Notes under the pieces: generated by a model
Database searches by the model: none
What the model saw: only the letters and a program-made list of their open reading frames with translations
What the model was told of the DNA's origin: nothing
Shown: in pieces, positions 32,845-63,889 of the stretch
Layout of the letters: every line of letters begins with the position of its first letter
Numbering within the stretch: the first letter of the stretch is position 1
Position numbers and translations under genes: made by a program
NCBI GenBank assembly: GCA_951406725.2
Contig: OX597814.1
Coordinates: 118,544,001-118,608,000, forward strand
DNA: 64,000 nt
From: Octopus vulgaris
Lineage: Eukaryota
Reading direction: 5' to 3'

Positions 32845-33488
32845 TTGGTTACTCGGATTTTGTGTCACGAAATTGTATGGCATGTTCTTCTTTGTCTTTA
32901 TTGGGTTGCCCTACGTTGTTGTATCGGTATTTCTATTCCACGCACTATACCATTTTCTATAGGCAGAGACGTGTATTTTTGTTTGCGTAGAAATTCTTTG
33001 AGGCGTTTTTCTCTGGTATTTACATCTTCCACAATGTAACAAATATTTCTGGTTAGGCCGTATGGGATATTCCGTTTTATATTTGTTGGATGGCACGATT
33101 TAAAATTCAGATATCGATGTATGTCTGTTTGTTTATAATATACTTCATTGGTGATGATGGTATCCCTTTTAATTAAGAATTTATCTAGAAATGGTAATAT
33201 GGTATTACTCATTTTTGAAAATTGGAAAGTCGGGTGCAGATTGTTCAGGAGGATATTGAATTATTCCAGAATATCTGGCGATTATGTCTATATTATGGTG
33301 CAATCGTCAAGATATCTCTTCCATGCATCTTCAATATACTTTCTAAATTCAGTGCCGTAGTTTTTCACTACTCTCTTTTCTAACTATCCTGATACGGATT
33401 TCCATAAACGGGAACAAAATCTCTTTCCTATGGCTGTACCTCTAGCTTGCATGTAATTCTTTCCATAGATTATATATATATATATATA

Positions 33489-43279: not shown

Positions 43280-44560
43280 AGGCACAGGGAGTAGGTTGTG
43301 TAGAGTAGCATAGGACTCTAGTAGCTGCTAAAGATGAATTTACAGGTCTATTGTTATCAAGCGTGTGCCTGATGTATTCATTATCTGCAGCAGCATTAGT
43401 GTTGGTATTTTCTAAGGGTGTTGAAGGAGTCCTCACCTCCTGAACGTTCTCTTTTCTAACTGTCTTATTTCAATCATTCCCTATTTAAGTATTGGGTTTC
43501 CCTTGGTCGTAAGGTAGGTTTACGGTACAGATGTTAGTAATAGAGTTAGAGTAGGAGGTGTGACGGTCATTATTCGTGTGGATGTTTAAGGTTATGTGTA
43601 GGGGGCTAGGAGTTAGTGTGAGTTGTGTCATTATGATAAAAATCAATTAATTGACGGTTCCTAAGATTCTTACTGTTCAGATGACGTTAGCAGTGGTGGA
43701 GTAGGAAAATTTAATCAATTGAGGAATAAAGATTTTTCTAAGGGGACTGGACTTAGGGATATATTTCTCAAGTAGGGCTGAACATTAAGGGCAAAGGTGG
43801 AAGAACTAGATAGCGTCATGCGTCGTGGTCCGCTTAAGAAGATTATCCGAATATCGGTTGGAGTATGGAGGTGCACGCTGGCTTTGATTTCGATGAGCGA
43901 ATACTGATTCGGGATTAGGTTTTCTGTTACTGTAAAATTTGGAGGGATAGGAGGGAGAGCCAGATGTATCCGTGGTGCTTGGTTTTCAAGGAGGGTCAAG
44001 CCATATCGGGATGTATTTCATCGGTTTCTTATATCCGGCGCGTTGTAGGGCGCAGGTATAATAATCGGCGTATTACTTAAATATTTCCTTACTGGCGGGC
44101 GAGGGTTAAATTCTGTAAGATACGCTGTCCATCATGTATTTTTGAACAGATGGGTATGACTGGAGGAAACGCTTACATTGTTAAGGTGCTAGCTACGTTT
44201 ATGGTACGGGTAGAAAGTGTTATTTTTAAAATTTAGAGTGGTATTTAGGAAATTAGCTGTTTTAATGTTGTGGCTAAAATAAGCTCTAAGGAACATGTTT
44301 TTAAATAAATGCCTGATTCTTTTACTAAATAATTCTATTTCGCAGTTACTAGAATTCTGGATCGAAAACAGAGCGTCCTCCACATATACACAACCAGAGA
44401 TATTACGGAATTATGCTTGGAGACATTGAAAGATGTAATAACCTACGTGGTCGGTAACTTGAGCCGAGTCACACGCCGTCATTGCGAGAACTAAATTGTT
44501 AGGGATGCATTTACGGACCTAGAATTTCGCAGCAAATTGTATAATGGTTTCAGGGGCTGA
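43280..44560 (-). mobile_element. Penelope-like retroelement RT fragment with low-complexity downstream region
   Basis: DSAQVTDHVGY (GSYDGAE-type motif), (C)VY(V)EDAL at the YxDD position, HLFKNMFL..NIKTANFLNTTLNFKNNTFYPYHK, VSSSH and YYTCALQRAGYK. Confidence 0.8.
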
Positions 44561-57529: not shown

Positions 57530-57583
<54 letters not shown>

Positions 57584-57616
57584 TGATCAAAATAAAAACA
57601 TGATGCCAAGGATTCA

Positions 57617-57694
57617 GCGGTACATATGTTTCGGGCCTTTATTAGACAGATTTATAACAATGCATAATGTATGTCTGGGGCCTTCTTCAGCCGC
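57617..57694 (-). ncRNA. Type I hammerhead ribozyme (left arm)
   Basis: Minus strand GCGG-CTGAAGA-AGGCC...GGCCC-GAAA-CATATG-TA-CCGC. Confidence 0.8.
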
Positions 57695-57791
57695 GCACAA
57701 CAGCTTCCACAAGGACATGTGGAATGAGAGGATTTGCATCCCCAACCAATAATTTTTGATGTAACACATGTCCTTGTGGAAGCTGTTGTGC

Positions 57792-57869
57792 GCGGCTGAA
57801 GAAGGCCACAGACATACATTATGCATTATTATAAACCTGTCTAATAAAGGCCCGAAACATATGTACCGC
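57792..57869 (+). ncRNA. Type I hammerhead ribozyme (right arm)
   Basis: Stem I GCGG/CCGC, CTGAAGA at 57796-57802, stem II GGCC/GGCC extended by AGACA/TGTCT, GAAA at 57854-57857, palindromic ACATATGT, and GUA cleavage after 57865. Confidence 0.8.
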
Positions 57870-57971
57870 TGAATCCTTGGCATCATGTTTTTATTTTGAT
57901 CAATTTACTCCACCACCTACACCACCAAACGGTATACACAGGTGCTTATAATTATCAAGTACTCACCCCGA

Positions 57972-58020
<49 letters not shown>

Positions 58021-62862: not shown

Positions 62863-62949
<87 letters not shown>

Positions 62950-63007
62950 GAAATATTGAATTTGTAAATGTCGCAGAGAGACATGAGAAGTGGTGGAGCG
63001 ATAGATC

Positions 63008-63458
63008 GGTTGTATACTGTCAACATAACTTGACAGTCCCGTAAAGGGAATTACCTCACCGCTATTTAGCCCTAGGAAGCATCGACGCTTCCTGTCGCCT
63101 TTGACACTATTCCTGTGTCCTTATATTTGCGAAGGGGAGGCAAGCACCCCCACCAGCTATATTTGTGGAGGTGACCAGTGAATAGATTTCACTGTAAATA
63201 TATATATTTGCGAAGCCTTGGCAGGCATCTCAACTAGTAGGACTGGGTACCCTGGACTGATGACAACCAAAGACTCAGAAACATCCATGTCTCTAGGTGC
63301 TAGGCCTAGCTGGTGGGGGTGCTTGCCTCCCCTCCGCAAATATAAGGACACAGGTAAAGTGTCAAAGCCGACAGGAAGTGTCGATACTTCCTAGGGCTAA
63401 ATAGCGTTGAGGTAGTTCCCTTTACGGGACTGTCGCGTTATGTTGACTGTATAGAACC
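63008..63458. mobile_element. Fold-back element with 152-bp GC-rich inverted arms (~92% identical) and a 147-nt loop
   Basis: 63008-63159 is the reverse complement of 63307-63458, with about 12 substitutions. Confidence 0.92.
63247..63300 (+). ncRNA. Type I hammerhead motif in the loop of the fold-back element
   Basis: GTACCCTGGA-CTGATGA-caaccaaagactca-GAAA-CATCCATG-TC-TCTAGGTGC. Stem I is 9 bp with one bulge, the core is perfect, stem III is ACAT/ATGT and the site is GUC. Stem II is unpaired. Confidence 0.65.
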
Positions 63459-63889
63459 ACTCTCTCTATATATATATTTGTAAATGTGTCTTTGAGTGTG
63501 CCTGCTTGTGTGTGTGTGTGCGCGACCGCATGTATTTCTGTTCTGTCTCAAAATAAAAAAAGATTTTACATTAACCTGATAGGTTTAGCTGTCGCCGGTG
63601 GTGATTTACTTTGAAGTCACTGTCAATGATATTCTTGTTGCAGAATAACCCCCCACACACACACACACACATATATATGTGAGGGAGAGAGTGACAGACA
63701 GATAAACAGACCGTGTGTGTATGATTGTATCAATCTATATAAATCGATATATACAAAGAGAGATAGATATATATATACAGGTCTACAACAAACGCAAATG
63801 TAGGAGAAAATTTACCAGCATTGACCCCGTCAATTAAATTATTGCATAGCTGCTATATTATCTCACAAAACATTTTTCCAGTATAATCT

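Follow-up and report, generated by a model that had tools for sequence, protein, structure and literature searches.

The window analysed in the present work is a stretch of 64,000 nt from Octopus vulgaris (assembly GCA_951406725.2, contig OX597814.1, positions 118,544,001 to 118,608,000, forward strand), taken from a host genome of 2.8 Gb that is rich in microsatellites. It contains an inverted repeat whose two arms, 63008-63159 and 63307-63458, are complementary at 140 of 152 positions and have a G+C content of 49-50%, compared with 33% for the window as a whole; the repeat is also scored as 160 nt at 91%, and the fold z-score of the locus is -26. A type I hammerhead ribozyme (63251-63297, forward strand) lies between the arms, with a core (63257-63281) that includes CTGATGA at 63257-63263 and GAAA at 63278-63281, a helix II at 63264-63277, and a GUC site at which cleavage is predicted after 63291. 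A sequence-only reading of this DNA, which took the locus for a hammerhead displayed in the loop of a GC-rich inverted repeat of 152 bp, described the arms, the complete core and the GUC site correctly, and a small arm hairpin GGAAGC..GCTTCC, which it also reported, is found at 63075. The 9-bp stem I of that reading is present in a shorter form: CCTGGA/TCTAGG at 63251-63256/63292-63297 provides only six contiguous pairs, which are followed by a bulge and then by a long imperfect stem.

The locus is composed of two pieces of a 353-nt repeat unit in opposite orientations. Insertions of this unit have ends that cluster at unit positions ~174 (site A) and ~229 (site B), 55 nt apart. The left piece (62948-63159, reverse strand) is an inverted, 5'-truncated copy that runs from unit position 227, at site B, back to position 16, and it matches the family majority at 200 of 212 positions, while the right piece (63170-63466, forward strand) is a direct copy that runs from position 233 through the ribozyme to site A (175) and matches at 271 of 297. 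The “arms” are the stretch in which the inverted and direct pieces overlap in sequence, and the inverted repeat is asymmetric because the left arm continues for a further 55 nt, to 62948, through the “tail” between A and B (62948-63001, reverse strand), whereas the right arm stops at A. The 10-nt gap between the two aligned pieces (63160-63169) holds junction filler, which together with its neighbours (63158-63171) amounts to a further short copy of the motif at 63122 in the left arm. The repetition of an arm motif inside the loop, as claimed in the sequence-only reading, is accounted for in this way: TATATTTGCGAAG occurs at 63122 and at 63203, where it serves as a stem partner within the unit itself, and the copy with two mismatches at 63158 is the filler. 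A small hairpin at 63176-63194 (forward strand), which recurs with changed pairs in a sister family, precedes a putative Pol II promoter at 63199-63232 (forward strand), suggested by the sequence and by the insertion points of a cassette described below, which comprises a TATA-like box at 63199-63206 and an initiator-like TCA ~30 nt later. The insertion lies in a (TA)n repeat (left, 62906-62947; right, 63467-63478), within which any target duplication would be hidden from view.

The repeat unit wraps head to tail in its mapped copies, has a G+C content of 47%, and in dimeric form has a longest stop-free frame of 73 codons, so that its size, composition and want of a coding frame all lie within the range of retrozyme units (~150-450 nt, G+C below 50%, non-coding). 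Exact matches to the hammerhead core pattern and to an arm 22-mer number 302 and 660 genome-wide, with none for the reversed controls, and a loop search of the genome gave 648 candidates, of which 40 were scored; the median identity of copies to the family majority is 90%. The statistics that follow are based on a sample of 83 insertions obtained with the arm pattern in genome order, of which 27 come from the first 30 matches (three double listings being dropped) and 56 from further stretches, with L213 added as a known pair and matches already present under other identifiers skipped. Direct pieces longer than one unit occur in 10 of the 83 insertions and none reaches two units. Two exact helix III motifs one unit apart are found at only six places in the genome, one of which holds four units, so that head-to-tail tandems with at least two ribozymes, which are expected of retrozymes, are a weak feature of this family. 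Sequence continues past the predicted cut site in 51 of the 83 insertions, which fits circular templates but also uncut (multimeric) RNA. Upstream of the ribozyme the sequence re-enters sites B and A of the preceding unit, for up to four units. In six dimers, the similarity between repeats exceeds that to the median other copy in every case, but that to the best other copy in only three, which is not decisive for copying from the same molecule. Pieces of the unit occur in 15 public runs, presumed to be RNA, in all cases as contigs; one contig returns after 353 nt, for which a genomic tandem accounts equally well. No contig in these runs bridges the arm junction of the window copy, a result that is neutral either way. 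A shared sub-repeat, which uneven depth along the unit had suggested, was set aside, the unevenness being put down to local identity and 5' truncation.

The ribozyme of the family is conserved in structure. In an alignment of 41 motifs (40 distinct), 93.8% of stem cells pair, and cells changed on both sides number 33, compared with 11.4 +/- 2.5 in shuffled alignments (none of 500 reaches the observed count), although two of five covariation measures failed against the shuffles (140 and 431 of 500). Three of the six stem I pairs and the middle pair of helix II are swapped in other copies, a covariation which, for stem I, the sequence-only reading had asked for. Helix III is the palindrome ACATGCATGT, which in 25 of the 41 rows was preset by the pattern used for searching; palindromic helices III mark dimeric hammerheads in Penelope-like elements (PLEs) and animal repeats (PMC4209133). 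Helix II in the other copies consists of three pairs, GGG/CCC or GAG/CTC, above a basal C.A (20 motifs), U.U (14) or U-A (7), and the restored helix GAGTC-caaa-GACTC predicted earlier is absent from them. Since the basal pair is in none of the 41 motifs the G-C (G10.1-C11.1) of the canonical fold, the activity of the family ribozyme is not assured. A type I hammerhead is nevertheless found in each unit, as in retrozymes, with the copy in the window in a decayed state. There, as the earlier claim of a decayed stem II had it, two of the three helix II pairs are broken, the active fold has an energy of 0.0 compared with -6.4 kcal/mol, and the helix III palindrome is also broken, with its duplex energy weakened from -13.3 to -3.2. 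Because of these broken pairs and the weakened duplex, the ribozyme of the window copy is probably dead, and the proposal that its cleavage opens the hairpin into a long dsRNA is unlikely to apply to this copy. A search of the window locus against Rfam, both at the gathering threshold and at E<=10, left the hammerhead unmatched and returned chance hairpin matches only. The possibility that arms stop at the ribozyme cut was rejected: nine direct arms begin at unit positions 1-12, compared with three and one in the adjacent bins, yet two further bins hold nine and ten, and one arm only begins exactly at position 1.

Some units carry additional sequence. A cassette consisting of a leader, a single frame of 440-463 codons and a 3' UTR that ends a few bases after AATAAA joins the unit just before the ribozyme in 8 of 89 one-armed copies and in 5 of the 83 sampled insertions. 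Its frame encodes a single CCHC knuckle and an acidic middle, with no reverse transcriptase (RT). The cassette loci (L364-L433, for example L379:886-2268 on the reverse strand, L400:1218-2549 on the forward strand, and the arrays L394 and L395) include young intact copies and 1.8-kb arrays, and the cassette is also found in hammerhead-free hosts and in head-to-tail arrays. Duplications of 9-21 bp flank it in 36 of 44 units (array-internal units included), compared with 13 of 1000 shuffles, and their position differs between subfamilies. One open reading frame, no RT and flanking target duplications are the features of a HAL1-like element. The zinc knuckle is below the Pfam cut-off and PDB matches are to knuckles only; the Atlas gives, as a lead, ZCCHC3-type RNA-binding clusters at 0.90, a word-seeded protein search for its relatives found none, and a HMMER search found 399 unnamed relatives. 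Rfam, applied to 18 cassette loci at the gathering threshold, gave no match. The cassette may be derived from a LINE of which it keeps ORF1 only, and may insert at start sites, with the identity of its frame as an ORF1 being a lead only.

The position at which the cassette lands is related to the TATA box. In 20 loci chosen for a clear duplication, a perfect TATAWA lies upstream in 13, and the duplication begins 28-32 nt after it in 12; this spacing is seen in the 353-nt family and in three other hosts, and among loci of the 353-nt family with a perfect TATAWA the duplication starts 30-32 nt after the box in six of seven. The spacing is weaker in a second sample of 20, selected with the flanks out of view, in which a TATAWA lies 26-33 nt ahead in 4 of 12 and 25 nt ahead in two more, with two lying within arrays, against a background of 6%. 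In L382, at ~1065-1090 and before the cassette, there is a short stretch which we take to resemble the 5' end of U1 snRNA, and the arrays L394, L399-L402 and L432 share ~500 nt of upstream host whose start is presumably Helitron-like. A sister hammerhead family (L376, L378, L381, L386) is of similar size and shares with the 353-nt family its hairpin series, with altered pairs, and the basal C.A of helix II; it has a CTGCAG palindrome and two end sites ~50 nt apart. Hammerhead families with altered cores (CCGATGA, TTGATAA, TTGACGA) stand directly behind the cassette in L414, L416, L417, L419-L421, L423 and L426-L429.

These associations raise the question of whether a 2-kb coding form, the unit plus the zinc-knuckle frame, is ancestral, with the 353-nt unit a deletion derivative that arose between the short repeats flanking the frame. 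A search for the frame gave 11,943 candidates, of which 150 were scored, and among the best 30 of these 18 adjoin the 353-nt family and four the sister family; the hammerhead starts 26-34 nt behind the cassette AATAAA in 7 of 16 loci of the second sample; and the chimeras were integrated whole. Of 11 chimeric or related two-armed units, eight are clearly A/B or B/A, one is borderline and two are unclassed, and integration of the chimeras left the PLE footprint that is seen for the unit alone. A coding ancestor is nonetheless unlikely, because the flanking repeats vary in position and in length (9-21 bp) between subfamilies, because the cassette with its duplications also occurs in hammerhead-free hosts and mixed head-to-tail arrays, and because just 5 of the 83 insertions are joined to it. 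The hammerhead-free hosts, the arrays and the subfamily-specific duplications likewise demote the cassette as part of a parent element.

The footprint left by insertion bears on the origin of the arms. An inverted 5' arm is present in 44 of the 83 insertions, a share that is inflated because a copy with two arms could be picked up by the search pattern through either of them, and is absent in 39. The 44 two-armed insertions contain no hammerhead core in 22 cases, one in 16 and two in 6, so that the architecture of the window copy, which had been regarded as the design of the element, is one outcome among several; a loop hammerhead is retained in some armed copies and lacking in half of them. 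Arm lengths and junctions differ freely between copies, and the regularity lies in the outer ends: 21 of the two-armed insertions are B/A, 15 are A/B, one is A/A, one is B/B and six have an unclassed end. Among the 38 with both ends classed, 36 have one site per arm (binomial p 5e-9), and in a first set, which was pre-selected and overlaps with the 83-insertion sample, the figure is 27 of 29. Outside microsatellites, duplications of at least 10 bp are found in 16 of 19 two-armed insertions compared with 1 of 13 one-armed insertions; 15 of the 16 are 11-15 bp long, several of them of low complexity, and one is a 19-bp simple repeat. In the first set the corresponding counts are 14 of 19 and 5 of 33, against a mean of 0.04 in a mismatched-flank control. 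These lengths exceed the 4 bp beyond which duplications count as a retrozyme trait. Targets that are AT-rich or (TA)n are preferred, with 51 of the 83 insertions touching a microsatellite and 32 not. The two arms of one insertion are closer to each other than to the median other copy in 26 of 29 cases and are in the top tenth in 18, although in arm-to-arm resemblance the window copy comes no higher than 22nd of 83. PLE-type insertions are marked by an inverted 5'-truncated copy and by two end sites with a one-sided tail, and both features are found here. Twin identical hairpins behind A and B were rejected, since hairpins exist at these places but differ from each other.

The same arms could in principle be formed on a PLE-mobilised unit by self-priming or fold-back on the antisense template, as has been proposed (PMC3846280), or by LINE twin priming. 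Several junctions, for example in L033, L041, L122 and L130, sit inside the unit's own hairpins or long stem, as fold-back would have it. Fold-back, however, would copy one end and so produce A/A or B/B insertions, which make up just 2 of the 38. LINE twin priming leaves non-overlapping pieces and a poly(A) end, whereas here the arms overlap and poly(A) is absent. Priming of either kind is accordingly a quite improbable source of the inverted arm.

A candidate for the enzyme is present in the window itself. The hairpin at 57579-57972 is the head-to-head end pair of a young autonomous Hydra-type PLE, with a left arm that ends at its site A and a right arm that continues 74 nt further to its site B. 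This family, for which an 850-aa frame with DKT, CxCx5C, YRDD and, near the end, CxxC and CxH is complete in L329, has the Hydra-clade features (DKT, CxCX5C, CxxC/CxH, a hammerhead and a (TA)n target), with RWA in place of RWK; a Pfam search with the frame left RT and GIY-YIG unmatched. Its motif has 1,818 exact matches genome-wide, its copies are 99% identical, and in 19 of 19 two-armed insertions the ends are A/B or B/A, with a 74-nt tail and a (TA)n target throughout. The unit and this family share a 10-mer immediately behind A as well as a 7-mer at B (shuffle P 5e-5 and 3e-3, for motifs that were spotted by eye before statistical testing), with 5 nt shared by the best other window; the family repeats a similar motif behind its own site B, whereas of the motif behind A the sister hammerhead family retains no more than CTTCAC. 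No alignment between the unit and the Hydra end loci reached E<=1e-3, which agrees with the earlier statement that the arms are unrelated to the 57.6-kb element. A Hydra-clade PLE is the best partner candidate for the unit, with somewhat less than an even chance of being the right one on these sequence comparisons; neither the 57.6-kb family nor an older relative is more than a candidate, because the motifs were found by eye, alignable homology was not found and the targets of the family are all (TA)n. A second young PLE family (L214-L217), which has a 765-aa RT/GIY-YIG frame, a 36-nt tail and inverted 5' copies, and whose 3' end holds a TTGATAA-type core-like string, was rejected as a partner because it has no homology to the unit and its end motifs share just 3 and 4 nt with it. 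Decayed fragments resembling the 765-aa PLE protein (41%) and the Hydra-type protein (35%) lie in the window at 32922-33455 and 43905-44557, respectively. An 8.1-kb tandem duplication at L238-L239 (G000:C1:57.30-57.31 Mb), 99.6% identical, carries a Hydra-type end in each unit.

The agreement of the insertion footprint with that of the autonomous Hydra family also suits a reading in which the unit is merely the pseudo-LTR of an undetected autonomous PLE and its copies are 5'-truncated insertions of that element. Such a parent could have been missed, since 150 of 6,136 GIY-YIG candidates and 150 of 18,284 Hydra candidates were scored. The search for an autonomous partner sharing the arms, which the sequence-only reading had recommended, found no element homologous to the unit among 30 GIY-YIG loci (best E 0.69); no RT plus GIY-YIG frame of the kind that marks an autonomous PLE was found joined to the unit, including in the 89 upstream flanks of one-armed copies; and the best 150 of the 18,284 Hydra candidates held the young family only, with no older one. 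Diverged Hydra-type fragments lie beside a few loci, without shared ends. The pseudo-LTR reading is very improbable, because the sequence upstream of the ribozyme is that of the preceding unit, with its sites B and A, rather than a coding region, and because the only extension shared among the 89 flanks, apart from the pair L182/L204, which shares a common repeat, is the RT-less cassette in eight copies.

The reading of the locus as an element of MITE or DIRS type, with genuine terminal inverted repeats that serve to display the hammerhead in a loop and to release dsRNA, can be dismissed as next to impossible. The window copy does have 152-bp arms around one hammerhead, and 16 of the 83 insertions look similar. 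All copies of a MITE, however, carry one and the same terminal inverted repeat on either side and a duplication of fixed length, and in DIRS-type elements the terminal repeats, inverted or split, are fixed and the target is not duplicated. Here an inverted arm is missing from 39 insertions, the arms differ freely in length and in their junctions, the outer ends are two different sites rather than one terminus, the duplications vary over 11-15 bp, and the units wrap head to tail. Of the earlier proposal of a ribozyme-bearing non-autonomous element, the non-autonomous character and the tie to PLEs stand, and the MITE or DIRS affinity does not.

Very probably, then, the locus is the decayed remnant of an insertion of a non-coding 353-nt repeat that is dispersed in the genome and belongs with the animal retrozymes, and its arms are likely to have been formed in one integration by a PLE RT-endonuclease acting in trans. 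In this mechanism, transcription would start ~30 nt past the TATA box of the unit, leaving ~25 nt between the start and the ribozyme core, and the ribozyme, probably as a dimer formed through the palindromic helix III, would cut the read-through RNA into units, which may then be ligated into circles; that a circle served as the template for cDNA copying is a proposition on which the evidence is evenly balanced. The PLE enzyme, probably also a dimer, would make staggered nicks ~12 bp apart, and cDNA would be primed from both target ends, with one start at A and one at B. The two cDNAs would stop at variable places and be joined through short homologies or filler, which would generate head-to-head arms with a one-sided tail, and whether a hammerhead comes to lie in the loop would depend on how far each cDNA ran. 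A point on the other side is the length of the tail, which is 55 nt in the unit, compared with 74 nt in the Hydra-type family and a published 30-40. A longer chain with three tiers can be put forward tentatively, as a reading with rather more against it than for it: a Hydra-type PLE would copy a ribozyme-processed RNA ring with its own TATA promoter from two fixed start sites, one per target strand, and an RT-less ORF1-only element that homes to Pol II starts regardless of sequence would colonise the promoters of many retrozyme families and so become cargo carried by the PLE.

If the arms were formed as proposed, then the flagged inverted repeat is an ordinary by-product of retro-integration, and the 353-nt family provides a countable genomic record of PLE integration, with one start site per target strand and staggered cuts ~12 bp apart. 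PLE insertions typically consist of an inverted 5'-truncated copy with a 30-40-bp tail on one end (Craig et al., PMC8557442). For one PLE protein, predicted to be dimeric, both target strands were shown to be cut and extended, with synthesis starting from a pair of internal sites that lie on either side of the tail. Ribozyme cleavage was dispensable for insertion in that system (Frangieh et al., PMC11167929); duplications of 8-10 bp around inverted pLTRs and mobilisation in trans have also been described (Arkhipova et al., PMC3846280). The pairing of A with B in the octopus insertions would extend the two-start-site result beyond one in vitro system. The cassette, for its part, marks the unit's likely transcription start, and its chimeras indicate that the signals of the 353-nt unit can accompany 2-4 kb of cargo; if it is true that the cassette targets start sites by position, such a rule of target choice would be unusual among LINE-type elements.

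The 353-nt family itself is of a kind already known, the animal non-LTR retrozymes, and its tie to PLEs is already in a 2026 preprint. Such retrozymes are 170-400 nt long, with PLEs named as a strong candidate for the mover (Cervera and de la Pena 2020, PMC7229834), and vertebrate retrozymes have been interpreted as non-autonomous PLE derivatives on the basis of co-occurrence and pLTR homology (Li, Clavereau and Pollet 2026, bioRxiv 10.64898/2026.07.22.740005). As set out in the accessible portions of these two papers, the published link rests on shared ribozymes, co-occurrence and pLTR homology, not on insertion ends, and the present counts add support at the level of insertions to the arguments from homology and co-occurrence. 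A literature search, mostly outside subscription journals and Repbase, did not find the 353-nt family or strict A/B pairing, and a search that was narrower on this point did not find an ORF1-only element targeting start sites.

The octopus unit resembles published retrozymes in its length (mussel 350-390, axolotl 330/350) and its non-coding sequence of 47% G+C, in the single type I hammerhead per unit with a 6-bp helix I and strong self-pairing, and in having duplications of more than 4 bp and coexisting PLEs; the weak basal pair of its helix II is reminiscent of axolotl HHR_Amex2, which has U.U. It differs in that its copies are mostly sub-unit and dispersed with few tandems, in that half of them have a 5' inverted arm, and in its two fixed end sites. 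Expression, cleavage and circles have been shown for published retrozymes and are predictions for the 353-nt unit, and an alignable counterpart of the pLTR homology to PLEs reported for Xenopus retrozymes was not found for the unit among the 30 GIY-YIG loci and the Hydra end loci.

The cassette, compared with HAL1, an ORF1-only L1 derivative (PMC5753468), and the target-specific Tx1 (PMC4494074), shares the single frame with one CCHC knuckle and no RT, the 3' AATAAA, duplications of 9-21 bp and insertion into other mobile elements. It differs from both in having no poly(A) tail at most ends, and homology of its frame to the L1/Tx1 ORF1p is a lead only; its targets, in unrelated sequences, often lie ~30 nt behind a TATA box, a property that does not figure in the portions of the HAL1 and Tx1 papers that are accessible.

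The unit's insertions are also closely matched by those of endonuclease-positive PLEs, with which they share the inverted 5'-truncated copy, the one-sided tail and two internal start sites, as well as AT-rich or (TA)n targets and variable duplications (PMC8557442, PMC3846280, PMC11167929); a hammerhead upstream of the start sites with a palindromic helix III is likewise common to both (PMC4209133). Unlike PLEs, the unit has no RT or GIY-YIG frame, has a tail of 55 rather than 30-40 nt, and wraps onto itself where a PLE would continue into an open reading frame. The Hydra-clade PLE of the 57.6-kb hairpin and L329 differs from it in being autonomous and younger (99% identical), and in its long helix II, its 74-nt tail and its restriction to (TA)n at 19 of 19 insertions; it resembles the unit in the alternation of A and B at 19 of 19, in CTCCACCACC behind site A, in ATTTCT at site B and in the CAT..ATG palindrome of helix III.
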